Numbered from the stretch's first letter, positions 1,785 to 35,318 are shown. The stretch is 64,000 nt of DNA from Yuukianura sp. NJ FZ-2021 (GCA_046563655.1 CM102285.1:13144001-13208000); one strand, 5' to 3'. A program made the numbers and translations. The notes: generated by a model not told the origin, from the sequence alone.

Positions 1785-4361
1785 TTAGTCCTCCCTCTTT
1801 GAAACGGGTTTGAATGCAATTTTCCGGGATTTGAGTCCGGACCAAATGTGTCGTTTCCAGTACCATGTCACGGCAATAAGCAATGGAAAGATGAGCAGGG
1901 CCTAAAAAAAGAAGAAAAAAGTATACAAACAAAGGTAGGGTCACAAGGAATGATGAATTTATGAAACGACTTTCAGGGGGACTCAAAACCAGCTCTTTTG
2001 GGGGGAAAAAGAATTGAAAGCATTATTTCAATCCATTATTTTCGGGGAAAGATGTGAAAGATAAGATGGACGAGATGCTCTGACACATTTATGACATAGG
2101 GAAGACATCGGAGACGTCTTCTTGCTGCGTTATGACTCCCAGAAGTCCAAGTATCTCCTAAGGAACGAATCAACTGAACATAAATTTTGAAAAAGGAAAG
2201 TGAAAGGAAACTGGGTAACATTTTGTCAAAAGCAATTCGTAAGTTCAGTGTTTCCTCTTGAGTCAAGGACGAAACCCAAAGGAAACACTATTTTCTCAAA
2301 ATGTTGTTCGAGACAGAGTAACTTAACATAACTTCAAAAAATAAATAAAAACAACTTTTACCGGTTCGTTACGCAACTTTTCGTCTCATCTTTGTACAGA
2401 ATCTCTCGTATGATCACGAAGTAATTCAGGATGATAAGGAAGGGAAACCCACCCCATTTAATCAACTTGAAATCTCATCCGTACTTTAAGGAAAAAAAAA
2501 CTTGGAAGTTGCATTACGTTATGGTTTTCGAAAGAGGAAGTAAAAGAATTATATGGGATGGGTTGTTGTTGTTGTCATTTTATGCAATCTAAATAACGCA
2601 CGACCCAGTGAATTACATATCTGTAAAAATCTAAGCATTTTGGGTTATAAAGAACTGAAAGTCGTGTCATAAATCAAATAGTTAAAGTCGACCTTTCCCA
2701 TTTCCCTCTTAAAAGCCTTTACTAAACAACTTATTATTGGCTTTTCTGCTGAATCTTTAGCGGTTATTACCTTAACTGTCCATCTCTTCCGGGTATCATG
2801 ATGAAATTCAGAAGACCATCGCAAAAAGGTAGAGACGTCTTTGGCCATTTGGCTGGCAGTGGCAACAGTTCCATCGGCGTATTCAACAACCTTGTGTAGA
2901 AAAGAACGTCAAGTTACTTATAAGTAGTTTTAATCAAAGTATATTCTATTTGAATCTGTAAGATTTTGTACCTCGTTGAATAGAGATTGAGCCATTGATA
3001 TCGCTCCTCCAGGAAAGTACGGATTATAGTATTGCCCATCCCGAATGATAACTCCAGCCGGAGCATCAACGTAGCCCGTAAGCAAATGAAAGATGTAGTC
3101 TTCTCCGCCATGACGAGCATTGACAATTAGAGACAAATCTGGTGGAAAGGCTCCGTTGTTGGCAAAACGAGCTGCCTCTTCATTGGCATAAGGACTTGGA
3201 AAGGTATCCGATAGTTTCCCTGGACGTTGAAACATGTTTCCTTCCTCATCCGGTCCATCAGTGACCTATAATTTACTTCGACTTTTTAGCAACTTTACAA
3301 GAGTATAAGGAAATGAAATCTGTTGTATGACGTGAACGTTGCTTACCATAATTTCTTCTGCTTCGGCCTTGGCTTCGGCTTCCGTATGTGTTTCTCCAAC
3401 CAAATGACGGTAGCACATAAATCGCATTGAATGACATGCAGCACAAACTTGTTTATAGACTTGGTAACCGCGTCGCATCGATGCATGATCCAAAGAATCG
3501 AAAATTCCACCATGGCTCCAAGGTAAATGCGGAGGGTGCGCTTGTAAATCGTTAGCAGAAACAGAGTTCTCGAGGCCTACCAAAATTACTACCCCGGTCG
3601 TTCCAGCGAGTCCAATTGAGCTCCAAAACTAAATAAACAGGAAATTCTTTGATTACATTGAAAGTACTTTATAGTATAACATATATAAGGTTAACTTACG
3701 AGCTTCTTAGAAGTACTGCTCTCACTCCAGCTAAAAGTCGACAGTTGTTTCTGTAAAACAAAAAATATGCAATTTTCGGCAGGAGTAAGGCAGAGGTGGC
3801 GTGTGTTAATCTCCCATATCCCCTCCGGTATCCCATCCAATTATTGTTGTTGCATTGTTGCAAGTTAGGTTAGGTTATGTTGTGCCCCAGCGTATCCAAA
3901 TCGGGCAACATTGGAACCACAACAATGGGAGGGGATACCGGATGGGATATGGACAATTAACACACGCCACCTCTGCCTTACTCCACCCCAATTTTCAACA
4001 TTCCTTGCAGACAAGGTCCGTATACTAGTGGTGATCCAAATACTAATTGTATTCCATAACTGATTAATGGCATAGTCGGCTGCTTATGTTCTCTTTTCTC
4101 ACAGCCGCAGCGCACCGTTACTTAACATATGATCTACCGCGTCTTCGCATCTTTATCGTACCAGGTTGCCTAACTGATCGCTTATTGCTAAAATACAAAC
4201 TGCATCAATACTTCACCCAACATCAGTATCATCTGTTTCATTGCATTCCCCTAAAATTTACACCAACTAAAATTAATCAAAAATCGAACCTGAGCACGGC
4301 CCAATCCATTCCGGGATGCTTGGATAGCCTTGGTCGAAAGCCTGCTCAAAATCCCAACCAT
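1785..4361 (-). CDS. CYC1: Cytochrome c1, heme protein, mitochondrial; exons 4361-4290, 3750-3700, 3628-3347, 3265-2972, 2890-2771, 1901-1785
   Basis: Heme motif [43 protein letters not shown] and C-terminal anchor [27 protein letters not shown]. All introns are GT-AG and phase 0. N-terminal presequence-like [17 protein letters not shown]. Confidence 0.97.
3778..3988. mobile_element. MITE in CYC1 intron 1, 8-bp TSD
   Basis: TIR GGAGTAAGGCAGAGGTGGCGTGTGTTAAT is perfectly inverted at 3956-3984 and extends imperfectly inward. Flanking direct repeat CAATTTTC (3770-3777, 3989-3996). Central GTTAGGTTAGGTT. Confidence 0.9.
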
Positions 4362-8631: not shown

Positions 8632-11600
8632 TTACTTTTCTCGTTTCGTAGAAATGGAAGGGTTTCCCACTGGTTCGGGAGACTGCGGACCTGGAACAAT
8701 TTAACGAATTTTGGTTTAGAATTTCGTTTTGTTAAAACAAATCTTTTTGTAAATTAAAAACTTACTGGAATCAGATGAAGATGAAGGTGACAACTGGCTG
8801 TGACTGCTAGCAGAAGAATCGGCCAGTCGTGACTTCAGTTCTCGTTCGCGATACATCCGAGCTGTTTGCGAATACAGTAGTTCCTCTTGAACCAGTTTCC
8901 GAGCTTCTCGTTCCCTCTTGAGGTCAATGTTAATTCGGAAATTGCTGTCTTCCAATAGCGCCAACTTTTGTTCCAAATCTTTCTTGTCGTAAATCGGACT
9001 CTTCAGTGGAGTTCCACCGAGCGCCATTGATAATTCCATGTTATGTTTCAGTACACTGGACAACTTCAGCTGGAGTTCATCTCGCTCTTCCAGTAACTGA
9101 AAACAGTCATAAAGAAAGCAATAATAAATATCAATTTTCCTTCTTTCTTTTAACTTTCAATCTTCTTTTAAATAAAAATTCAAAACTTACCCTCGTAATT
9201 TCTACTGTAAGTTGGACACAACGTTTGTCTCGTTCATCAAGAGCGTAAATGAGACGCAGAAGCTCTTCCTGGATTTTCATGACCTTTGGATGAACGCCAG
9301 GATCTTTAGTAGCCGAATTGACCAGCATTGTGATTTCTTCCTGATATCGCTGATTCTCCATTTCCAGTCGCTTGATCCAATTTTTAAGAACAAAAGACTC
9401 TTCGTACGCTTTCATCTCCGAATTTTCAATTTCCGTTATCTTCGACTGCAGAAGTTCCATTTTTCGCTCCTTTTTGGCAATTTCGTCCTTCAGAGCTTCA
9501 ATCTCTTCTTTCAGCTTGGAAGCTTGTTGTTGTCCTTCTTGCGCTGGCAAAGTTTCAATTTTTACCAGCTCAGCATGCCTTAAAGCTTCTTCAACTTGTA
9601 TGGCCTTGGCTTCCAGCTCTGCTGTCAGTTTCTTAAATGCATCGACTTCAGATTTTAACCACGTCGCTTCCAGTTCAAGTTGTTCCTTAGCCTTAACTTC
9701 CCGTTCGAGCTCATGAATTTTACTTTGGAGTTCATCTGTAACCGTTTCAAGTTTAGATGAAAGTAGAGAGTTCTTCTCCAGCAGTTGATTCGTTTGATCC
9801 GACGCTGCTTTCAAAGAATTTTCGACGTTTAGCAGCTCTTCACATTTCGACGCAAGTTGTTGCTGGAGCATCAAGCATTCCGATTCGCGCAGTATTTCTT
9901 CTTCCTTGAGCTTATTTTGATACTCCTCCCGAGCCGTGTCCTTCGTATTCTTCCAAAGGTTCATCAGTCGCACTTTCTCACTGCGTAGGTGAACAGCTTC
10001 TTGCTTATAAGTTTCTGTTTGAATCTTCATATTGGTCAATTGTGTCCCCAGGTCACTGACCTCTTGATTCCTGAGATGATTGACCCGCGAGAGTCCTTCA
10101 ACTGCAGTGGAAATACTCTCTTCCTGAACGCTAAGCTTATTCAGAAGTTCTTGGATTTGATCTTCACTGGTGTTCAGCTGGACCCGATAGGATTCCTTCT
10201 CTTGCGTCAATTTTTCAATTTCGGTCGAACTAATTGATAAGTAATTCTGAATTGATTCAATTTGTTCTTTAGCCAAGGCGTTAAGCTCTTCTTGTTCCTG
10301 CCTGGTCACCTCACGCTCATGAGCCATAGTATCCAGTTCACTTTCAAGACGACTTATGCATTCGCTCTTGCTGTTGATGACTCCAGTGAGGTCAAGCTCC
10401 ATCTTTTCTTTGGTGTCAACATAAGACTGATAAGCAGCCATGAGCTGCTGAATTTCAAGGTTCTTGGCATGTACAGTTTCATTAATTTCGGTGGTTTTCG
10501 TTTCGACGCATGTCTGGATTTCCTGGAGCTCCGCTCGAAGATCTTGCAATTCTTCGTCTTTCTGATTTAAAAGGATTTCTAGCGATGATAATTTGGAAGT
10601 AGCCTGTTCTAAAGCGTTTTGGCTTTGAATTTCTTGCAATGATAGCCGTGTATTTAAATCTTCAAGGGCGTTACTCTCCTGTCGGAATGCAATTTCATCA
10701 GCTTCGCGTCTCCTGTGAAGGGTATCCAATTCAGCTTCCTTCCGCTGCAGCTCCGTTTCTTGCAATGAAATTTGTTTACGCAATTCTTCTACAGTTTCTG
10801 CATGCTTCTCCATTTCTGTGTGTTTGAAGCTGAGGTTGGACGATAAATATTCCGTATGCTTTTGATGTTCCTGAAGATCAGTTTCATAAACAAGAAGTGT
10901 GTTTCGGAGAGACTTTATTTCTTCCTCCATTTCTTGCAATTTTATTTCCTGAGGCAGTCTGGCACGAAGATGTTGCAGTTCTTGTTCCTTGTCGCGTAAA
11001 TCGTATGCATGAGAGGTGATTTCAATACGAAAATCTTCTAGCGTTTTATCCTTTTCGACCAATTCGTTTTCAAGCATGGCGATTTTGGAGACTAGATCGG
11101 AATTGCGGTCCTCGGCGGCGTCCAGGCGCTGACTCTGCTTCTCGAAGTTTTGCTTCCTCAATTCCTCAATGCAGCGATTCTGAAGGGTGACAAATTGACT
11201 GTGAGAGGCGTCGGGTGATGATGAAGGGGGACAATCTGTTTCGTCAGTTTCGGTATACTTGTCTAATTTGGGAATATAAATTGGATCGGTTTCGGAGTCT
11301 ACCATGTCAGCGATTTTTAATACATTTCTGGACAAATCAGCGACCGATGACGATTTTTCTTCATTCTTCGTTTCGCTAAGTTTTAGTTCCTCTGGCGCTG
11401 TTGTTGCAGTCGTCTTATAACGCTCTTGGTCTTCCAGTATTAGCTGTACGTCCTCGAGTTCTTTAACTTCCTGCGCAAGCATCTTCTTATAATTCTCTTC
11501 ATGACCTTTCAGCATTAGCTGTACGTCCTCCAGTTCTTTAACTTTCTGCGCAAGCATTTCTTCATAATCATTATGTTTTGACTGAAGTTCCTTCATTGCA

Positions 11601-12912
11601 GCTTTTGATGCTGTGGCGTCTTTGACTGCTGCTTTGGCGGCTATTTGGTATTTTTTCGCTTCACGTTCAACTTTTTCGAGTTGTTTGGCTTTTAGGTTCA
11701 CTTGTTCCTCAAATTCATCGCATCTTCTTTGAATCTCCATCAAGTCTTCATCTTTTGACAAAAGTTCGTCCTTGAAACGCTCTAATTCTTCTTTGAGTTG
11801 TTGATTATCAGTAGATTCTACTTCGCGAAGTTTGTACTCTTCAAATTCGGCTTGGAGTTTTTCATAATCCCGCGTAACCATTTGATATCCACCGATGATC
11901 TCGCTTTGCTGATCTTGCAGTTCTTTCAATTCAGCCTGTGCCTCAGCCAAAGCTCGAGCCATTCCTTCTCCGTCTTGTTCCAAACTATGAAATTGAGTCG
12001 GAAGACATTTTAGTAGATTTAGTTTAGTCTCGAGCAGCGATTCACCAGCATCAGTTCCGCTGCCACTATCATCTGGAGGTGCTGCAGGAAGATAAGTTTT
12101 AAAATGCGCAAGGAGGTCATCCAACACAAGGTTGACTTCTTCCATTTGTTCGTCTTTGGCGACAATGTTTACTTTCATGGCCTTCAAATCCGAGGATAGG
12201 GATGAGATTGATAAAGATTCTACGTTCTTCTCCAGAAGAATTGTTTCTAACTGATGCTTGACCTCTTTGCACTCTTCCTCTTTTTCGGACAGCGATTTCC
12301 GAGCGATAGCCAACTGCTCATTCAGGGAATTTACTTGCTCCTCAAGCTCAAAATCTTTCCCGCTTTGGGATGATGCTTTACTACTTGAGCTTTCCATTTC
12401 ACATGGCTTGATTTTTACAAACTTTTCGTCCTCGACGGCAGATTCTTCTGAACCGGTTGATAGGCTCATGAGTGAGATAGGCACTGCCGGGTGACCCTGA
12501 CTAGAACGAACGCTTGAAGTTTCGGCTGAATTGTCTTCATCTCCATGTCCAGTCGACTTGCCGTGGGAGGCTATAATTCATAAAAGTTGCATTACGTGTT
12601 TCGGTTGAAATGGAGCGAGAGAATGGAGTGAGAAGCTTTGTAACAGCCAAACAATGCATACCTTTTGAACGAGCTAATAGACTCATCAGACGTAACTTTT
12701 CAGCTTGCAAGGCTATATTCTCTTCACGAAGTTCTTCGAGGTCAAGGTCAACGTTTGGTGTGCTCTGTTAGAATACCATAAAACATAAGTTTGTAGTGTA
12801 CTAACTCTTTGACTCATCGCTTCATTCATCAGCGTTTCCTTACTTCGTGCAGAGGCTGAGGTTCATCAGGTGATAATTCAATGTCTTCCATAGCACCAAC
12901 CAGATCGTCCAT
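8632..12912 (-). CDS. Long coiled-coil golgin-like protein, lava lamp-like; exons 12912-12844, 12764-12662, 12570-9191, 9096-8766, 8690-8632
   Basis: 1117-aa E/K/Q/L-rich heptad ORF extended by frame-consistent GT-AG exons. An in-frame stop lies upstream of ATG 12912. The C-terminal segment LIYALDERDKRCVQLTVEITRLLEERDELQLKLS resembles the insect lava lamp C-terminal motif as I recall it. Likely 5' UTR exons extend to ~13500. Confidence 0.75.
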
Positions 12913-21100: not shown

Positions 21101-24100
21101 GTAGAATTTAAAAGATAGTCGATTCATTTGTTATTTGAAGAAGTTTGGAAAGAGACTAGAATTTGTTTCGTGGTTAGTTGGTCATTAAGGTACTTGGAAG
21201 TGCCGAGTCAGGAAAAGTGTCTTATATTATTGTCATTGACACTGTCTTCTTGACTTTAAATTAGTTTCATTGTTAGCAAGGGCTTGTCAGGATTCAGGAA
21301 CAAAAGAAATGAGGCTAAGGTTGGATAAGTTGACTAATGATTACAAAAGTCTTACTATTTCGTGCTTTTTGTTCGTGATTTGGCATTTTAACTAACTTTT
21401 TTTTTGGTTTTCAGTTTTTTGAAAAAGAGGGTGAAGAGTCCGACGTATGAAATTTCGGACATGGAGGTGGACGCTGGACTTTGTGAAAAAAGTGGAAACA
21501 TTGCGGCCAAAATTGCAGCTCTGAAGACGAACGGGGAAATGAACTGGAAGAAACGAATTTGCAAACCGATTATCAAAAATGTACTTGTGGATGATGAGCA
21601 TCGAAATATTGAAATTACGGCAAACAATAAGGTGAGTTGAAAATTACGTGGTTAAAAGCCGGTTGACTTTTGATGTAAAGCAATTGAGGTTTCTTTTTTC
21701 AATTGTTCTGTGGAGAAATTGAAATTTTTTTGTTCGGCGTTTCAGGACTCACCAAGTGTCATTGCAAATCGGCTTTCGCTTCTCACAAAATCACAAACGG
21801 GTTGGAAACAAAGAGTATCTGAAAATGATGCAACGGATTTAACCGTACAGTCCAAATTGGAAAAAGCAGGAAAATTGAAGGAAAGTTCAATTTTGTCTGA
21901 CAAAAAATCCAAGGCGTTGAATAATATTCTGACTCCAACGACATTTGCAAGTAAAGGAAATAAGACGCCAGCTCTGACTCAGGAACTGGAAAAACGCTTA
22001 AATGTTGTCAAGAAACTTCAACATCCACCGACAGCCTCTCCTGTTTCAAGTAAAACATGAATTTCGAATGCGATGCAAAAGATTTACTGAAAATTATTGA
22101 AATTGAAGGTCTATTGAAAATGTGTGCACAAGTTTTTATGAAAGTGTTTGTTTTTTGTTTTGTTGCAGGGTTAACAACTGCAGAAGTACCGACAGACGCT
22201 CAAGCAGTTCGCAACGTCAGCGTCAGCGAAATTGACACTGAAGCCTTTCGCAAGTTCTTTCCTTCACCAACTGAGATTTTCAGTGGCAGTCCATCCACCG
22301 TACCTCCAGTAAACTTTTCTCTAGATGATATTACGAGCACCAACAGACAGTTTCTGGGCGTGCGCAGGAACGTGCGGCTCAACCGAAATCATGCAGCAGT
22401 CCGAAATCCGATCAAATCCTTGGCATCTCGTCTTCCAGAACAGTCTTACACGGAACTTACACCGGAAGTGCGTGAAAAGGAACTCAAGAAACGCATTCAA
22501 GTTGAAAATCGTATGTAACCCAAGACCAAGAATAAAATTCTGTATTTTTCGCCTCTCTGCTTCCTATTCTGCGCCTCCGTATCTATCGTGTCCTAAATGT
22601 TGCTAACTAAAATCCTTTCTACGCCAAAATGTGTCTATCTGGTATTTCATTCGCATGCATGTTACTGTTCCTACTCGTATCATTTCTGTAGTATTTTCAA
22701 AAACTTAATTTCTTTTTAATTTGAAATTTCGACCCCCTACTTTTAGTTTCGAAAACGAGTCATTTGTCAGTGGAGGCATTAGCTGGGCTGGTGAGCAAAG
22801 AAGATTTTACAGCAGTTAAGTTAAAACGGGCAGAAAAAGAACCACGAAGCCAGGAAATTCCTTACCCAATGTTAATACGTATCAAAGGAAAACGTTTCGT
22901 GCAGAGTCGTCTTGTTCCGCCACTGGTGTCTAGTCTCAGTTCCGGTGATTGTTTTATTTTGATTACCAAAGACAAGGTGAGTTTTCTAAAGTTTTGTCGA
23001 CACTTCGTTCCATTTTATTACAACAATATTCGAAAAATTTTATTATCGTACGTATTTTTATCTTAGGTGTACCAATACATTGGCGAATTTTCAAATCGAA
23101 TGGAGAAAAACAAATTGGCGGACATTTTAACGCATTTATTGCAGAAACGAGATTTGGGAATTAAGTTGAACTCGCTCGCATCAGTAGTGACCATCGAGGC
23201 TCCATTTGCCATGGAAAGAGAAGATGTTAAGAATTTTTTCAAAGCGTTGGGAGGTGCGGAAATGGCATCGGAAGAAGCTGATGTTCTGGGAGACGCTGCT
23301 GATGAAGCGTACGAGTCCGGAGTCATACGAACAAATCGAGTTTTTGAAGTGGATCCAGTCAAAGAGCAACTGATTCCGTTGCTTGCTGATGGTGGATGGG
23401 GTTCTCAGCCGAAATATTCGATTTTGAAAGAGGATAAGGTAAAAAGCACGAGGAAATGTTTAGAGTAAATAACATGCTTTAATATTTGTGTTTGTGCTCT
23501 ATTTAGGTGTTGGTGTTTGACTTTGGATCTGAAATGTACGTCTGGTCTGGATGTCGAGCGGATCCGAACTTGAAAAGAACGGGTACTCTCCTGGCCCGTG
23601 AAATGTTTGAAGATTCGTACAACTTTTCAGAAGTTGGACACGAGTATAGTCCACTGGGACCTCAGTTGACTGGAGACAAACGACCAAATTGGTGCTGGTT
23701 CAAGCGCGTCACTCATCACATGGAACCGATTCTTTTCATTGAAAAGTTTTTCGACTGGCCGGACGAGAGCGGAAAATTAATAAGAGTTAAAACCATCAGC
23801 GAATCTAGTGGTGGGAAGGAGGGAGGATTTCACTTCACGCCGTGTGATGTGCAAGAAATGATGGATGCTGCAAATAGTATTGAAGATCCTGTTCTGGATT
23901 TGGAGGGATTCAACGTCTCTCGCGGAACGGAAGTTCATGATGAAAAGGTACCAGAAACAGCTTAAGAATTGTTTGGAATGCTTGATTGTTAAGTTTTTTT
24001 TTCTTTTGTCCAGGAACATCGGCACTACGTAATTACCACGCTGGAAGTTACCGCTTGGAGGATTTCAGAATTTTCCAAAACACCTATCGATGCTCAATCG

Positions 24101-25950
24101 CTGGGCCACTTTTACTCAACAGAGACTTACGTCGTTAGGTGGCACTACAGTGTAATGCAAACCGGGCGAGACTTGAAAGGAAATCAATCCAAACATGGCG
24201 GAGTTTTGGGTCGAGCTCGTACGGCATATTTCTTTTGGCATGGAAAAGATTCCAAAGCAACTGAACAAGGTAAAATATGCTTCCTGGATGCTGAATTGTT
24301 AACTCACACCGTTTACTTACGTTTTTGTACCACTTTGCAGGCACATCAGCTTTGATGACTGTTGAATTGGACGAAGAAAAGGGACCTCAAGTGAGTGATC
24401 TATTGATGACATTTTGAATTAATTATAACTTTCTCCGCGCTATGAATTGTCTACGAAAATCATTAAAAAATCCTTATGCGCAGGTCCGTGTCGTCCAAGG
24501 TCGAGAACCTCCAGCCTTCCTTGCCCTCTTCGATGGTCTGATGTTTATTCATTTAGGATCACCTGAAGAATGTGCCCAAAGAAGTAACTAACTTACTTTA
24601 AACGACCTGCTGAAATCAGGAAGCTTAATATATTCTTATCTATTATTAGATTTGCGTGTCTACGTAACAATGGGATGTTTGGACAAGGAAGGTCACTTCG
24701 TTGAAGTGTCTGCGGACCCGTCATCATTTAGAAGCCGAGGTTCATTTCTTGTTGTTGACAGGAGCAAAGGAAACTTTTGTCTTTGGCATGGCTGCCACAC
24801 CTCTCCCACAACCGAGAAGGTCATCTCATTGTTCTGAGTATTTATCCAGAAAATCTTGACATCTTGAATGTTAATGCAATGTATGCTTGATGTCATTAGA
24901 TTGCTCAAAAAGGTGCCAAATACATTTCAACCTCACCTTCGGAAATTGGCCTTCCGAAACCATTTCGTACTTTGGAAATGAGGGAAGGAGAAGAAACGAA
25001 GGAGGTCTGGGAGCGGCTTGGCCTCAAATCCGAAATGGAGTGGAGAGAGTCCTACACGTCGCTCCGAGCACAAGCAAACGGTTCTAGTCAAACTACTGTT
25101 TTTCAATTCACCACCCTCAACGGGATCTTCGAAGCACATCCACTTCTCAGTCCAAAGCGCAAAATGGACACTTTGCACTTATTTTCGGTTTTGCAAGAAG
25201 ATTTGTACAACGTACGGCAGCCTGGTGAGTTTGAGGAATCATTGCAGTAAATCTTCCGAATGCTAACAGATTTTGATTTTTCATTATATGTAGCTATCTT
25301 TTTGGTGACACACGGATCTGACGTTTGGTTGTGGCATGGATGGATTCCACGAGGAGATGAAGAAAACGAAAACACGTCAACTGGTAAGCAGCGAAATAGT
25401 GAATAACAGCTTTAAAAATTGTATTCGACAGCACATGCTGACCGATTCGTTCGTTTTCAGGATCTGGGGAGTATCGTTGGGCAGCCGAGCGGAAAGCAGC
25501 GCTTGACACTATTGTTAATCTGGTCAAACACAAGAATGGAAGAGGGTTCCTAGTCCACGCTGGACTGGAACCGCCGTTATTTCGCTGCCTCTTTCCATAC
25601 TGGTCAACAAATCAAGAAGCAAGAGAATGCAATCTCGCTGACGGCAAATTAGAAGATGGTGCTATATCCTTGTCGGCCGCATTAGAATTATTTAAGAAGA
25701 AAACTTACACGCTCCAAGAAATTCAAGAACGTCCAGAAGGGGTGGATCTACTTAGATTGGAAGATTATCTGTGTGACAGCGATTTTTTGGTGAGATTACG
25801 AATTTGGGAAAACTTTCAGGCGAAATAGTTGGAAAAACTTTAATAATTTTGTTTTGTTTTTAGAATCTTTTAAAAATGAGTCGCGACGATTTTGGAAAAT
25901 TACAACAATGGAGGAAGACTGAAATCAAGAAACAAGTTGGCCTTTTCTAA
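15198..25950 (+). CDS. SVIL: Supervillin (gelsolin repeats plus villin headpiece), more than 20 exons
   Basis: RFQTQPIT, LSVEALAGLVSKEDF, MLIRIKGKRFVQSRLV, SLSSGDCFIL, VLVFDFGSEMYVWSG, YFFWHG, VRVVQGREPPAF and terminal WRKTEIKKQVGLF*. The N-terminal exon set is less certain than the C-terminal half. Confidence 0.93.
16186..16350. mobile_element. MITE in supervillin intron, 8-bp TSD
   Basis: CATGTAATTTGGTCGCAAGTAATAAGGTCGCAAACGCA is perfectly inverted at the right end. CTTCAGAT at 16178-16185 and 16351-16358. Central AACCTAACCTAACC. Confidence 0.9.
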
Positions 25951-26283: not shown

Positions 26284-27809
26284 TGCGAATTTAGGAAAAA
26301 GTATGAAAGGAGAGATGCAAGGAATTAAATTGCGAATTTTTGGAGCATTTGATTCCCATAAGACAAGGGAAGGCGCCGCTGTTTGAGTGGAAAAAGTAAC
26401 AGGAGATTCTACAGCACGAGAAGGCTCCTCTCCCTCCTTTGCCGACAAGGGAAGCGAGTGTGGGAAGCGAGTAAAAAGTTGAGGTGGGCAGGGAGCCTTT
26501 GTGGGCCGTAGGATCCCCTTGCAGCTCCCTGCACTTTCAAAACTGACTCCTTTCTTCTCCATGTTAAATCTCTTTCAGAAAATTCAACAAAATCAAAAAC
26601 TTTAAAAATTCATAACTTTGGAATGGAAAGCGATAGGAAGCTAAACTCTTCACGCCTGAACTCAGAAAGACATGTAGAATTTTCTAAAATTTTAAAAAGG
26701 TACTCTAAAATTTTGAACAAATTTCGAAAAAATTGAAGGCACAGCCTTTAGGATTTTTTTGGCAAAAAATTTATTTAGCTCGTTTTTTGGCTTTTTAAAA
26801 TTTTGCAACGAATTAAGCGTGAGCCGAGCGGTATAATCGGTGAAATCACTGCAAATTGATTTTTGTTTTTAGAAATTTCTAAAAACGGAATTGTGCATTT
26901 GTTTGTGTGGAAGTGAAAAAGTTGAGCAGAAAAGTGAACACTTTTGAATGGATTAATCCCTCAACTTTTTCGTTCATTCAAACTTACTTCCATACAAAAC
27001 ATTTCAAAAATCAAAAAAGTTTCCAAATTCATTATCTCGGGAACGTAGTGAATTATTGAGGAGATCTCTTCACTGCTAAATTCAGAACAACCTACAGTAT
27101 TTTAAAAATTTTAAAAAAGATCAAAACCTAAAAGCTGTCAAAATTTTGATGCTGTGTTTTTTTTCTATACTTCTTGTTTTTTGTTTTTTAAAATTTTTGC
27201 ATCAAATTGTTTAGGACGATGTCGGATGACTAGATCCGAGCGCTGGAGCCACAGAAATCGCTGCAATGTTGAAATTTTTCGAAGTTAAAAACGACCGAAA
27301 AATGAGGGTGTTTGTGTGGGAGTGAAAAAGTTCAGTCGAAAAGTGAACACTTTTGAATGGATTGATCCCTCAACTTTTTCGTTCATTCAAACTTACTTCC
27401 ATACAAAACAGTTCAAAATTCAAAAACGTTTCAAAATTCATAACTCGGGAAGGGAATGCATTATTGCTTTCTGTTCACGAGATGTGAATTTTTAAAGTTT
27501 TTGATTTTTTGAAATTTTCTGAAAGAGATTTAACGTGGAGAAGTTGAGGAGTCTAGTTCGAAAGTGACCGGAGCTGCAAGGGTATCATACGGTCCAGAAA
27601 GGCTCCCTGTCCACTTCAACTTTTATTTTCCCACACTCGCTTCTCTCGTTGGCAAAGGAGGGAGAGGAGCCTTCTCGTGCTGTGGAATCTCCTGTCACTT
27701 CTTCCTCGCAACCAGCGGCGTCTTCCCTTGTCTTATGGGAATCAAATGCTCCAAAAATACGCAATTTATTCATGGAATCTCTCCTTTCATACTTTCTCCT
27801 AAATTCGCA
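26284..27809. mobile_element. Foldback-type non-autonomous element with ~330-bp imperfect inverted arms and ~407-bp internal direct repeats
   Basis: 26284-26615 is the reverse complement of ~27485-27809 (the ORF track shows AKEGEEPSRAVESPVT on both strands). The block TTTGTGTGG...TGAACACTTTTGAATGGATT...CATACAAAAC recurs at ~26903 and ~27310. No clear TSD. Confidence 0.8.
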
Positions 27810-28075
27810 AAGTGTTCCCCGTGAGAGGCGCAACGAATGCTTCATTTAAAAGCAAATCAAACTAAATCGTTAACCACTCGTTACTTCGCTCAAAAATTTT
27901 TAAAAATTTAAAAAATCATCTCTTCGTTCATTTTATCCCCAAAATTTGAAATAAAATATAAAACTGTCAACTTGGCAATGAATTCTGCAATTCCAACGCT
28001 TTTCGATTCACACAATGGGGAAATTATTTATTGAAAAAATGATTTATTTCTTGGGAAAATCGTTTTTGCTGTGAT

Positions 28076-28570
28076 TTAGAAGAATGGATGATCATTTTTG
28101 CTGGTTTTGACCAAATCGTCCATTGGTTGAATCACATCCCAATGCTCAACGATTTTTCCATTTGCCACTCGGAAGATATCGATGATTGCCAAGAACTTGC
28201 CCTCGTTCTCTGGATCTGGGAACTTGACATGGAGCCACACGAGGTCACCGTCAGCAGCAGCTCTTCGGATGTCCATTGTCTTCTTTGGACCAGTTGCCCA
28301 GTCAGCAATTGTTTGCTTTAATCCCTCCAGTCCGTCGACGGCCAGTGGATTGTGCTCAATGAAGCTTGGATCAAAGTACTTCTCTACGGCAGATACATCT
28401 TGGTCGCCCTAGAGGTCACAACGAGGTCACAATTACAATTTAATTCCAAAATTTTGAATTTAAAATGTCCAAACTTTCAAAGAAATTTTAAAACTTACGA
28501 AACACGCTTGGTACGCTGTCTTGACCAACTCCTTGTTCTTGTTTTCCAACTCTTTTTGCGCATCAGCCAT
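28076..28570 (-). CDS. SnoaL-like / NTF2-fold protein (134 aa) of bacterial type; exons 28570-28499, 28408-28076
   Basis: Spliced product MADAQKELENKNKELVKTAYQACF|GDQDVSAVEKYFDPSFIEHNPLAVDGLEGL...ADGDLVWLHV...DIFRVANGKIVEHWDVIQP...SKNDHPFF. GTAAGT...CTAG phase-0 intron. An additional 5' UTR intron lies at ~28706-28582. Confidence 0.9.
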
Positions 28571-28769
28571 TGTTGAAGATTCTAGAAAACGAAAATTGGG
28601 GTTCTTTTCCTTAAATTATGGTTAACTTTTGCAATTTACATCTATAAGAAGCCTACAAATTGCAGCAACTAACTATCTAAGATTACTGAAAATGTCAATA
28701 ACTTACTTTGTATAGTAAGATCCGTGATCCAAGAAGCTAAACACCCAGCTCACTCGAGACGTTCTTGGT

Positions 28770-28775
28770 AACTGA
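28770..28775 (-). promoter_or_regulatory. Arthropod-type initiator TCAGTT of the SnoaL-like gene
   Basis: Reverse-strand TCAGTT about 65 nt upstream of the GTAAGT donor at 28706. Confidence 0.5.
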
Positions 28776-30222
28776 CACAGATTAGCACAAACTCGTGAAG
28801 TTTTTAGCTTTTGTACAAAAGTTAAATTCAGTTGTAAGCTCTTATTTGCGTCAATCATTGTTTGCATTTTTCCCATCTTATCTTTCCAATGACCCCTTGT
28901 GAGAAGAGTATAATGTTGGAGGTCAACCGTGTGATGAGAGCTTTGAATTAATTACTTTAGGTTTAATTATGCAATTGATATTCTATTTTATGTCAGTCAA
29001 CCTTACATAATGCATTTTCCTCTCACAATCTTTTAGTTTTAGAAAACGTTCAAAATGCAAATACGTTTTATCATCACGTAGTCTGTAATAATATCAACAA
29101 GCATCATTCTTGGTTCTATTTCTGCAAGTGCAAATTATTTGCGCAGATTTCATCAGACGCTGAGGATGTTTGCAGGTCAATGCTAAGAAATTATCAGTAA
29201 AAATTGCGAACACGTCTGGATGAGTTTCCAAAGTGTAAGTTCCCGTTATGGCTTCTGTTTTGTGTTATCTTGTGTGAAAAGTCCTTCAGCTTTTAAACAC
29301 ACACCTACAAATAACGTCATTCAACTCTTCTGTGCTTAAAAGTTTAGTTTTAAAATAAAGTTTTTGGTTTTTGAAGAGAAAAGTAGTTTTTTCCATTGCT
29401 GTTTCTTCACGCCGCATGAAAAAAATATTATTTTTCCTATGCTGAAGCTGGCTTCAAAACCACAGAAAAAAGAATTTAATTTTTATGTGGCGTTTGGTTG
29501 TAGCAACAAAAAAAATCAAAGTTTTTAGCTTTCCAAATTTTTAAACTCAAGTTAATTGGGAAGTGAAAGTGAAACTAACCTTATCAAAGTGCTACAATCT
29601 AAAGCTAAATTTCGAAAATTGTTGACTTTTTGAAATTTTGAGAGGAAAAGTCAACAAATTCATCGAGACGAAGACTGAGAGCGTCTTGATTAGTATTCAT
29701 TGCTAAGACATTATCTTAAAAAATGTGACACACTTCTTCTGGATGGATGATGCTTTTGAAAGTAGCTTGTTTGCTTCTGTTTTGTGTAATCTTCTGTAAA
29801 ACATCCTTCAGATGATACAAAACACTTTTCAATAACTTCAAATTTACGAAGTCATTGATGTTAAAAGCATCGATGTACAAAGTAAACTTTTTCAATAGAA
29901 ATGAAGGTCAGCTAATCAAATTTCACCCTGCACTGTTGAGTTTTTAACGGAAGTTTGTGGTTTCATTAATTACAGTTGGAGCTACAAGTTTCTAATTATT
30001 TCATGGACAAAGTTCGAAAGGTCAGAACTTACAACTCTATTTGTCCATAAAATAAGTTGAAACGTTGATGTCACATTGTTAAGCCTATGTGACCAACTTA
30101 GTTTGTCTCGCTATAAATAAGGTATTCATGATTGACGACTGATTGTAATGCAATTAATTTATTGTAGCTACATGGAAAGCTTACTTTGTTGTCACAGACA
30201 TTTTGGCACAGTGTCCTTGGCG

Positions 30223-32486
<2,264 letters not shown>

Positions 32487-35318
32487 TCCGGCGAAGTCTG
32501 GAGTCTGCAAATTATAATACCCTCTAAAATCACCTGTTAATGAGCAAAAAAAATTGTTTAGTAACTCATAGTCATAGTTTTCAAATTAAGATCATTCCGC
32601 AGAAAAGTACTAAAAGAGTGCTGCTAAATTGCGTAAGCCAGTGCTTGGTTTAAGTTAGTTGCTATACACTGCCCAACATCCTCCAGCATGGAGACTAACG
32701 TGAAGCCAACTGCAAAAAATATTGGCTTACACCATGTACTGTTCCTGGAGGATTGGGTCAGTCTGCTACTCCTTGATAAAAGATTTTGCAGTAGCAAACG
32801 CATGTCATTTAATTAGCAAAATCGGAATCCCGTGTCCATCCAAAGTCAGTGCTCAAATTCAAAAACAAAAGCAGGAAAACGTTTCAGCAAATTAGATGTT
32901 TAAATGGAATTAAAGAAAAATCATAAATACAGCAAATGATATCGTACAAAAATGATTTTAAAAAAATTAGCCAAGCCTTAGCAAGAAAGTGTTTAGCTTA
33001 GCAAGATTAACGATAACGATATTCTTTTACAACATGTCGCTTGCAAATTGCAAGGTGCATTATTTGACTTCTTTCTAACAGAGAATTAAAATCTTCAGCT
33101 GCATAACTGTAAATTCCTTCAGCTTACCGAACAATGTTAGCTAGTAGTACGAACACAAAATGCTTGAATCAAATGGAAGATGAATACCGAAGCTTCTGTC
33201 TCGTCGTCTGTTACCACTGTTCCTATTTGACCCCTGGTTTGTCCGATCGGTACTCCTGTTGAACAAAGTAATTGAACACTATCGCCTAGCTATACTGCTA
33301 GTTAACAATTAATCTAATCTCCACAGTAAGAAAAAACACTTTAGTGTCAAGTGTCAGCTTACCGATAACTTTTGAAGTGTTTGTTTTGAAAATGAAAGCG
33401 ATAAAAATACCGCTACTCCAAACCGGTATCAGTATCTGTCGTCACGGTTCGGACGAAGAGTTCCGCCAGAAGATGGCACTCAGAACCAAAGCATCGTAGC
33501 ACCTTATGAGGTTTACACTAATATATGATTTGTTTAAGATATTAATTAATTTCGCTAATTAATAGTGTAGTTACCTCACGATTATTTAAGACATGTCCAG
33601 AACTGGGCCCAGTGAAGAATCTTAAATCAAAGTTAAGAAAACTTTATAGTTTTTCAGACATCCGTGACTGAGATATTTCGTTCGTTGAAGAGTTTCGTTA
33701 ATTGTCCATTTTTTCTAACTTTGTTTCCTTTGATCATTGTAAATTTTGAAAATGAAAAAACTGAAAATTTATAGTGAGCAAGAATGCAGTTAATCGTTGG
33801 TTTTTGAAGGGCTGTAGTTCCGTAGCGTGTAATTTCGATTTCTTTGGATCACCATCTGGGCCCTTGAAGGTAAGAAACAGAATTCATGATTCGGAGTAAT
33901 TATGAGATGCTGCTGGATGGATGCCCGTCTTTTTTCTGGATTCTGACATGAGAGACATGCAGTCTACTTGGTCCTTGGATTTCCACTTTTTACTAAGAAA
34001 AAGAGGCGGATCTCCCTTCCAGAATTCCTCAAGTGGAGCATTCCACAGAAGTCTATCAATTTGGAAGGAGAAGCTTAGAGTGTAATTGGGCTTCTCACAA
34101 GATCAGGAATTCCTGAGAGATCATCCTTCACCTGTTCACTGGATAATGTTAAATCAGGGTCCCCCTGCACCCTTAGCTCTTCCATCATCTTCATCTTTCT
34201 TCTGCATCACCCAAAAATGGATATAAATCAAAGTCAACAATCATGGTTACGTTTTTTGATGAGGCTTTTGAAACAGAAGAACGCTAATGTAAATTCCTCA
34301 ACTTCAAAAAACAAAGCATCTTGAATAGGTTCAAAATTTATAATTTAAAATCCGAAAATTAATCAAGGTAGCAGAAGTGAATTTTAAGCGATTCAAAAAA
34401 TTTTTGGAATTTGAAAAGTGGTCTGAAGGTCGCTACTATACTGAAAAATTCAAAAATTCACCCATTCTACGATTTCCTGTGAAAATTTACAAACTTGCTG
34501 AATTTCACCAACTTTTCAAAACAGCTTTCATAATTTCTCAAAAAGTTGAAAAGATTTGCGGGTATGTCTTTCCAAGCCTGTTTTTTTTTTGTATCCAAAA
34601 TGACAATTTGTTATTCTAAAATTCAGTTTTAATCGACCAGTGATTTTAATCAGATTTTTTGAATGAATAGACAACAAAAGGGAACCGTGACGTCCCATGG
34701 GGGGACTCTTGTGATATCTTCTTGTGTGAGATCAAAGTGATGATCTCCCTTGCTATTCAAATCTCTAAAAATTTAAAAGTTTTTAAAATTTTCAAATCTT
34801 GTTCCAAAATCTGTCATTTCCATCACCCAAAATTATCCATCTGCTTCAGAAATCCTTTCAGAAACGAAGAAATCATAACTTACTTTTCTAAAATTGGCAG
34901 TTGAAGGTTTATTTAATGGAGAAGCGGTGATATTCAAAGGAATGGAGCAGGAAATTAATCCGTTGTACTTGTTCATGGTCCCCTTGGCTGTTCTAACTCC
35001 TATTTTGACTTGAACGAACACAGTGGAGATGTCACGACTTTTGTTAGTCTAACCTAACCTAGTTATCAAGAATAGGAGACTAAAAAGAGACGAGTTATTT
35101 AAGAAAACAAATAAATCGGGGTTTGTTTCTCCAAAATCCAAGATTAAAGGGTTGAGAAACCGCTTTTCACAACGGAGGTTTCAAAAGCGCTAAATGCTTT
35201 TCTCTTTCATCATTGCCGCTAATTCGGAGAACCCAAATGGGCGCATCTTACTGAATAGCTTAAAATTTAGCTTAAGAATTGAATAATTTGATAATTATTT
35301 TTAATCCACGAAAATAAA

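Follow-up and report, generated by a model that had tools for sequence, protein, structure and literature searches.

The window, by which we mean the whole 64,000-nucleotide stretch of DNA analysed here, carries on its minus strand a gene for a 134-aa SnoaL-like protein. We consider it likely that this is a functional arthropod nuclear gene, descended from prokaryote-type SnoaL_2 proteins of the COG4922/3g0k-like kind and acquired long ago by horizontal transfer. An earlier note on this DNA had proposed an old transfer that is now expressed, and this proposal is supported by the embedding of the gene among host genes, by spliced contigs in one of the sequencing runs (X4), by a saturated synonymous divergence (pS) and by the retention of nearly all of the residues conserved in the family. 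Apart from the start site that had been proposed for it, the observation was confirmed as real.

The gene occurs as a single copy within the 64-kb window and has three exons overall, two of them coding. Its parts, in the direction of transcription, are:

28707-29448, minus strand: non-coding first exon, at least 742 nt; record 18 of X4 is colinear with it, with 22 other letters and 3 gaps.
28582-28706, minus strand: 5' UTR intron, 125 nt, GTAAGT..TAG, GC 0.30.
28499-28581, minus strand: exon with the ATG, 11 nt of 5' UTR plus the first 24 codons; matched by the 84-nt central segment of X4 record 18.
28570-28499, minus strand: coding exon A, 24 aa, with the ATG at 28570-28568.
28409-28498, minus strand: coding intron, 90 nt, GTAAGT..TAG, phase 0, GC 0.27.
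28408-28076, minus strand: coding exon B, 110 aa (28408-28079) plus the stop codon TAA (28078-28076), holding nearly the entire SnoaL_2 domain.
28027-28075, minus strand: 3' UTR with two AATAAA signals (28048-28043 and 28032-28027), read from the sequence.

A 134-aa protein with a particular set of motifs had been described from this locus, and both translation and Pfam bear this out. The HNP..DG, GDLVWLH and DIFRVANGKIVEHWDVIQ motifs are all encoded by exon B, which by itself matches Pfam SnoaL_2 (PF12680; E 5.6e-13, 49.8 bits for a cut-off of 27) and Pfam SnoaL (PF07366; E 1e-10, 41.9 bits for a cut-off of 28.4). The gene product matched none of the NCBIfam families, and Rfam and tRNA scans of the 64-kb window returned no matches. 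The GC3 of the SnoaL coding sequence is 0.54, and that of an orthologue described below is 0.52, vs. 0.35-0.44 (pooled 0.39) in eight neighbouring host exon pieces; this higher GC3 could result from codon usage tied to expression or be left over from the donor.

The expression evidence for the SnoaL gene is confined to X4 contigs that skip introns. All five sequencing runs (X1-X5) are recorded as 'DNA?', and X4 was made from the same sample as X1-X3. We infer that X4 is RNA-derived, from the intron-skipping joints present in two genes and from the near-zero depth, in X4, of an intergenic repeat on which the DNA runs pile up. One X4 contig of 1096 nt (record 18) reads 29448-28707, 28581-28498 and 28407-28135. 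In it the coding intron is spliced out with the joint 28407->28498 (cut +1) and the 5' UTR intron with the joint 28581->28707, in agreement with the one coding and one 5' UTR intron predicted in the earlier note. Contigs from the same run skip eight further introns in the neighbouring M17 gene, all CT..AC-bounded, i.e. GT..AG on the minus strand. The introns of the SnoaL gene (90 and 125 nt, GC 0.27-0.30) match those of the M17 gene (64-100 nt, GC 0.25-0.35) and are thus host-like in both size and composition.

The proposal that transcription starts at an arthropod initiator, TCAGT, at 28775 found no support. The motif does occur, at 28775-28771 on the minus strand, and it lies within the long first exon; the start is not supported because the spliced X4 contig passes unbroken through it and continues about 670 nt farther upstream, to 29448. 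It should be noted that contigs cannot reveal transcript starts, and that 29448 is the end of a contig rather than a mapped start. Near the 5' end of the first exon are a TATA-like ATAAAAAT at 29486-29479 and a TTCAGC at 29446-29441 (minus strand). The first exon holds upstream ATGs, and the three minus-strand ORFs found in 28707-29448 had no Pfam match. Three readings of this segment are conceivable: the 5' UTR may simply be long, assembly may have joined a separate upstream non-coding RNA to the transcript, or the M17 gene may be read through at a low level.

The SnoaL gene lies between animal genes, with the following features on either side:

21500-25947, plus strand: supervillin-like gene, delimited by tblastn HSPs; downstream of the SnoaL gene and convergent with it.
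26284-27809, unstranded: repeated element, about 1.5 kb long, in the gap where the SnoaL and supervillin 3' ends face each other; outside the SnoaL gene.
30200-32585, minus strand: M17 aminopeptidase gene, NPEPL1-like; upstream of, and co-oriented with, the SnoaL gene.

The placement of the SnoaL gene between SVIL and NPEPL1 was therefore correct, both flanks having been found. The supervillin-like segment at 23507-23965 (plus strand) gave 10 matches; those with a name come from two beetles and from two species of Orchesella (41-44% identity). Over the supervillin gene, mean identity was 38.2% to Orchesella (652-738 summed bits) and about 35% to beetles (572-578 bits). The host is thus an animal with a supervillin nearest to that of hexapods and marginally closer to Orchesella than to beetles, none of the named relatives being close; the margin is too small for the host to be called a springtail. 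On the other side, Pdase_M17_N2 is matched at 31650-32006 (minus strand, E 3.4e-6), the NTDAEGRL exon lies at 30843-31004, and the M17 gene has at least eight spliced introns with X4 joints between 30326 and 32092. The intergenic element at 26284-27809 has terminal inverted repeats of about 350 nt that are 83-92% complementary (I1-I4) and an internal 167-nt direct repeat, and is of the foldback or MITE-like type. Its word depth in the DNA runs X1 and X2 reaches thousands, vs. about 200-300 elsewhere, so that it belongs to a high-copy family in this genome. Elsewhere in the window, two exons of cytochrome c1 lie within 2933-3628 (minus strand; Cytochrom_C1 E 5e-42 and 1e-20), an ordinary nuclear gene, and 9134-12577 (minus strand) holds an unbroken open frame of 1148 aa without a Pfam match, within a stretch of strong AT skew (-0.28).

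Bacterial contamination or a chimeric assembly was considered as the source of the gene and rejected on three counts: its host flanks, its spliced introns and its coverage in the DNA runs. No observation in favour of contamination was found. It had been argued previously that the introns and flanking genes speak against contamination, and the data agree on each point: the gene is flanked by host genes on either side, its two GT..AG introns are spliced in contigs and host-like, and introns and flanks are AT-rich. In addition, X1 and X2 cover 30 of 30 bins of the 8 kb around the gene, and X5, which stems from another organism and another study, gives the gene a low depth of 2-4. Contamination is thus scarcely credible as an explanation.

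Members of the family in what is probably another eukaryotic genome provided a further point of comparison. L001 is a 5086-bp metagenome contig that carries two tandem SnoaL copies at 963-2706. Copy 1 encodes 134 aa, is predicted to contain two 71-nt GT..AG introns and shares 81.3% identity with the window protein (109/134). Copy 2, referred to as P0123, has an uninterrupted coding sequence for 136 aa and is 65.7% identical (88/134); among the HMMER matches listed, it was the sole close match of the window protein. Three features of L001 suggest that it is eukaryote-like: only 37% of its sequence falls in ORFs of at least 100 aa and its GC is no more than 0.39 (medians over 80 metagenome loci: 96.5% and 0.60, respectively), and it also holds a 154-aa EF-hand ORF whose N-terminus is hydrophobic. 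Similarity between L001 and the window is limited to the SnoaL gene, with no shared synteny beyond the gene edges. The tree presented below places the L001 duplication before the split from the window lineage, yet there is one copy in the window's 64 kb. The first intron lies after codon 21 in L001 copy 1 and after codon 24 in the window gene, a shift of 9 nt, and the second intron of L001 copy 1 has no counterpart in the window gene.

The comparison with L001 copy 1 also allowed selection to be estimated, dN/dS having been suggested as a check. We give pN/pS in its place, since pS exceeds the saturation limit: pN is 0.114 and pS 0.844, for a pN/pS of about 0.13. Synonymous sites are thus saturated while replacement changes are strongly suppressed, and the SnoaL gene is under purifying selection. 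At the level of individual residues, 19 columns are conserved to at least 80% across 586 non-animal rows, and the window protein retains 17 of them, including His43-Asn44-Pro45, Gly78-Asp79, Asp101, Phe103-Arg104, Glu112-His113-Trp114-Asp115 and Gln118; the two departures are Phe for Tyr at position 40 and Glu for Gln at position 42. With these 17 identical columns, the protein carries the COG4922/3g0k-like motif set QHNP..G, GD.V, D.FR and EHWD..Q.

Could the gene nevertheless be an expressed but decaying or functionless relic of a transfer? Two observations lean that way. The upstream ATGs of the first exon would hamper translation if this exon were the main 5' UTR, and in about half of the X1/X2 DNA depth the coding intron takes another form. 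In this second form (joint 28420->28492), 71 nt are deleted or replaced; its contig depth is 98.9 in X1 and 143.6 in X2, where the total depth at the locus is about 230-240. If it were a pure deletion, the 19 nt left over would be unspliceable and would throw the frame out; a heterozygous variant and a null allele are both conceivable. Against decay stand the intact frame, the low pN/pS maintained over a saturated divergence, the 17 conserved residues and the tandem paralogue in L001, which is likewise intact. A relic is therefore very improbable, and we favour a gene that is under constraint.

The distribution of the family is broad in bacteria and sparse in eukaryotes. Among the matches listed in a first search, 8 of 120 proteins carried an organism name and all eight were bacterial. 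In the GTDB species-representative bacterial and archaeal genomes, at least 604 stretches fit the search patterns and at least 553 of them encode relatives. Named bacterial relatives amount to 91 rows from at least 10 phyla, the best being Bacteroidota such as Flavobacterium, at about 50% identity. A HMMER search of 1.84 billion cluster representatives gave 2421 matches at E<=1e-3, of which the best 150 were considered and 20 of these looked up; the only named eukaryotes among the 20 were the springtail Orchesella dallaii and the oomycete Globisporangium splendens. A profile search added one diatom, Seminavis robusta, among the best 120 of 216 matches. Orchesella dallaii is thus the only named animal with this family among the inspected matches in the protein databases, compared with at least 553 bacterial relatives, in keeping with the earlier statement that this is not a standard metazoan gene. 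A Protein Atlas search with the Orchesella domain returned bacteria-dominated clusters only, which we treat as a lead.

Ranking of 595 domain rows by the window protein pointed in the same direction. After its own group, the best rows were P0002, which has a signal-peptide-like N-terminus (129 bits), and Flavobacterium (128 bits, 49.6% identity), while Orchesella ranked 119th (102 bits) and the oomycete 184th. The nearest proteins outside the window protein's own group are thus bacterial, at about 50% identity; most close relatives are metagenome proteins, and they are called bacterial on the strength of the named minority, of signal peptides and of the coding density of contigs. Judged by a crude hydropathy rule, a signal-peptide-like N-terminus is present in 115 of 139 single-domain homologues that begin with Met. 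It is missing from the window protein and from both L001 copies, which start directly at helix 1.

The Orchesella dallaii protein, P0127, is built differently: it has 509 aa, a hydrophobic N-terminus and two SnoaL domains. Together with P0222, P0224, P0294 and P0295 it forms a sister subfamily in which one or two SnoaL domains are joined to Gly/Pro/Gln/Ser-rich low-complexity regions. P0222, P0224, P0294 and P0295 resemble the Orchesella protein in their low-complexity N-terminal parts. The N-termini of P0127 and P0294 are hydrophobic and those of the other three are cut off. A YGPPG..PGQPL motif is common to P0127, P0294 and P0295, and all five proteins end in HPFF or PQPFF at the C-terminus, as does the window protein.

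An IQ-TREE analysis of 61 rows and 133 columns (LG+C20+F+G4) gave tight animal groups. The 535 domain rows outside this tree are mostly bacterial-type proteins without an organism name, together with extra named bacterial rows. The window group (the window protein, both L001 copies and P0137) is monophyletic at 100/97, the Orchesella group (six rows) is monophyletic at 100/99, and the two are joined at 86/82. The oomycete proteins form a separate clade at 100/100 that does not join the animals in the free tree, and the diatom domains sit elsewhere on very long branches. The backbone among the bacterial clades is a polytomy, and the tree places the animal group inside no particular bacterial clade. 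Taken together, these groupings show an animal group that is tight and deeply diverged from everything else. The maximum likelihood phylogeny proposed in the earlier note therefore delivered in part: it recovered the animal groups and, its backbone being a polytomy, singled out neither a donor nor a number of acquisitions. AU tests rejected neither of the two alternative groupings tried: a single clade of animals plus oomycete gave a p-AU of 0.666, the constrained tree being 4.57 lnL better, and a clade of the window group plus Bacteroidota gave a p-AU of 0.353, this grouping having been picked after the tree was seen.

These data bear on two further accounts of how the gene came to be in an arthropod. 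The first is that the arthropod copy came from another eukaryote that already held the bacterial gene (such as an oomycete, a fungus, or a protist taken as prey or living as a symbiont), or that several eukaryotes share one acquisition. The AU result for animals plus oomycete is compatible with this route, as is the presence of the family in Globisporangium and in the diatom Seminavis; in addition, the signal-bearing proteins P0205 and P0268, whose sequences look eukaryote-like, adjoin the window group in a FastTree analysis, which again serves as a lead. However, the free tree sets the oomycete clade apart from the animals and the diatom domains on long branches elsewhere, and by BLAST the best bacterial rows match the window protein at 128-129 bits, well above the 83-92 bits of the oomycete rows. 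On balance we rate a eukaryotic intermediary as unlikely.

The second account is that of an ancient eukaryotic gene, inherited vertically and lost from nearly all animals. The presence of the gene in at least two arthropod groups (window/L001 and Orchesella), which join in the tree, speaks for such a history, as does the deep divergence, with its saturated dS. The distribution is nonetheless extremely patchy, with one named animal species among the inspected matches, and bacterial relatives are more similar to the window protein than is the Orchesella protein. Moreover, intron positions differ between orthologues that are 81% identical, and one paralogue has no coding intron, a pattern that fits a formerly intronless gene. 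Vertical inheritance thus seems decidedly improbable. Transfer from bacteria to animals remains our preferred reading, and its direction is suggested by the combination of a family that is broad in bacteria, patchy in eukaryotes and unstable in its intron pattern.

To consider what the transferred gene might do, we turned to the fold. The intronless paralogue P0123 was modelled as a stand-in for the window protein. The model (pLDDT 90.4, pTM 0.86) is an alpha+beta cone with helices H5-25, H29-35 and H52-63 and five strands. Foldseek with this model gave 397 PDB matches at E<=1e-3, the matches listed being of the NTF2 type; 3g0k came first, followed by TsrD, putative polyketide cyclases, limonene epoxide hydrolases and SnoaL. 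Membership of the SnoaL-like family and the NTF2 fold, both asserted in the earlier note, are thus upheld by Pfam and by the paralogue model. The 'polyketide cyclase' part of that assignment is a family label, as no polyketide-synthase family occurs among 62 ORFs neighbouring bacterial homologues at 26 loci. No conserved partner gene was found beside the bacterial homologues either (62 of 76 ORFs, 26 loci): the neighbours are heterogeneous and include rhodanese/PSP1, LysR, Rrf2, MerR, NmrA-like, cupin, RidA, dioxygenase, MFS and other proteins.

The closest solved relative is 3g0k (Saro_2880) from Novosphingobium aromaticivorans, with a profile E of 1.8e-29, a Foldseek E of 3e-10, a TM of 0.73/0.77 and 31% identity to the modelled paralogue. 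It aligns with the family profile in the DIFRV..G.IVEHWDVIQ region and the C-terminal tail, and reads QHS and GDHV where the profile has HNP and GDLVW. It differs from the window protein in being bacterial, about 30% identical and 148 aa long, with some 20 residues ahead of the aligned domain. 3g0k was deposited as a 'putative membrane protein' and a 'protein of unknown function with a cystatin-like fold', and gives no mechanism because its function was never established. In the COG4922/3g0k-like subfamily as a whole, labelled 'predicted SnoaL-like aldol condensation-catalyzing enzyme' by JGI, a signal peptide or a hydrophobic segment of the lipoprotein type is typical at the N-terminus, though not universal, and the window protein lacks one.

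Two better-known enzymes share the fold. SnoaL itself (1sjw, the nogalamycin polyketide cyclase) belongs to the same Pfam families and has the same NTF2 cone (TM 0.64/0.61 to the P0123 model). Related ester cyclases are AclR, SnoL, IdmH and TsrD, SnoL and AclR being only distant in profile comparisons (E 5e-3 to 6e-5). In SnoaL, a His-x-Asp dyad of the last strand serves in catalysis; the window protein contains an H113-x-D115 pair. True SnoaL polyketide cyclases are encoded in, and act within, an aromatic polyketide cluster, in contrast to the window gene with its supervillin-like and M17 flanks; the window has no polyketide gene cluster. Limonene-1,2-epoxide hydrolase (1nww, 1nu3) also has this fold (TM about 0.64), with a weak profile match (E 5e-4) and less than 20% identity; it is a small stand-alone enzyme with a hydrophobic small-molecule substrate and a buried Asp/Arg.

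Our best inference from these comparisons is that the SnoaL protein would be a cytosolic small-molecule enzyme performing acid/base chemistry on a hydrophobic substrate, a pure ligand-binding role being also possible. In the history that we propose, an intronless ancestral copy would have passed from bacteria to an animal, and introns would have been gained and shifted after the transfer. The protein would act in the cytosol as a small NTF2-cone enzyme holding a hydrophobic small molecule in its pocket, with acid/base catalysis possibly provided by His43, Asp79, Asp101/Arg104 and Glu112-His113-x-Asp115. The reaction might be of the cyclase, isomerase or epoxide-hydrolase type, and the substrate would likely be a microbial or dietary secondary metabolite.

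A more specific scenario can be put forward tentatively, although we regard it as rather doubtful. A single ancient acquisition of a bacterial secreted SnoaL_2 protein might have occurred in an ancestor common to the window lineage and springtails. The arthropod family would then have split into a cytosolic form of 134-136 aa without a signal peptide (window, L001) and a secreted form fused to low-complexity regions and sometimes tandem-duplicated within the protein (P0127, P0222, P0224, P0294 and P0295). The cytosolic branch would record the birth of introns in a formerly intronless gene.

Microbial gene transfers into arthropods are known in the hundreds, and this type of event is therefore well known in itself. 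For the SnoaL family, no earlier report of transfer into animals was found in the literature searched: the titles and abstracts available to us contained none for SnoaL/COG4922 in arthropods, insects or metazoa. SnoaL is likewise absent from two supplementary files of the Folsomia candida genome paper, from two supplementary files of the Orchesella cincta genome paper (PMC4987106) and from the text of the O. dallaii genome paper (PMC12693562). According to passages of that paper, bacterial or fungal gene transfers into springtails include the beta-lactam biosynthesis genes of Folsomia candida, which are expressed (PMC12693562). On this description, these too are genes of microbial small-molecule metabolism that became fixed in arthropod genomes, although they belong to a different gene family.

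The present case is unusually clean: the transcripts are spliced, a second, eukaryote-like genome carries both an orthologue and a paralogue, and the gene is under purifying selection. The missing signal peptide would mean that the cellular address of the SnoaL protein has changed. The differing intron sets of close orthologues offer a natural experiment on the origin and movement of introns in what appears to be a formerly intronless gene. Lastly, should the protein turn out to be an enzyme with microbial metabolites as its substrates, it would be one more instance of arthropods of soil and detritus borrowing microbial chemistry.
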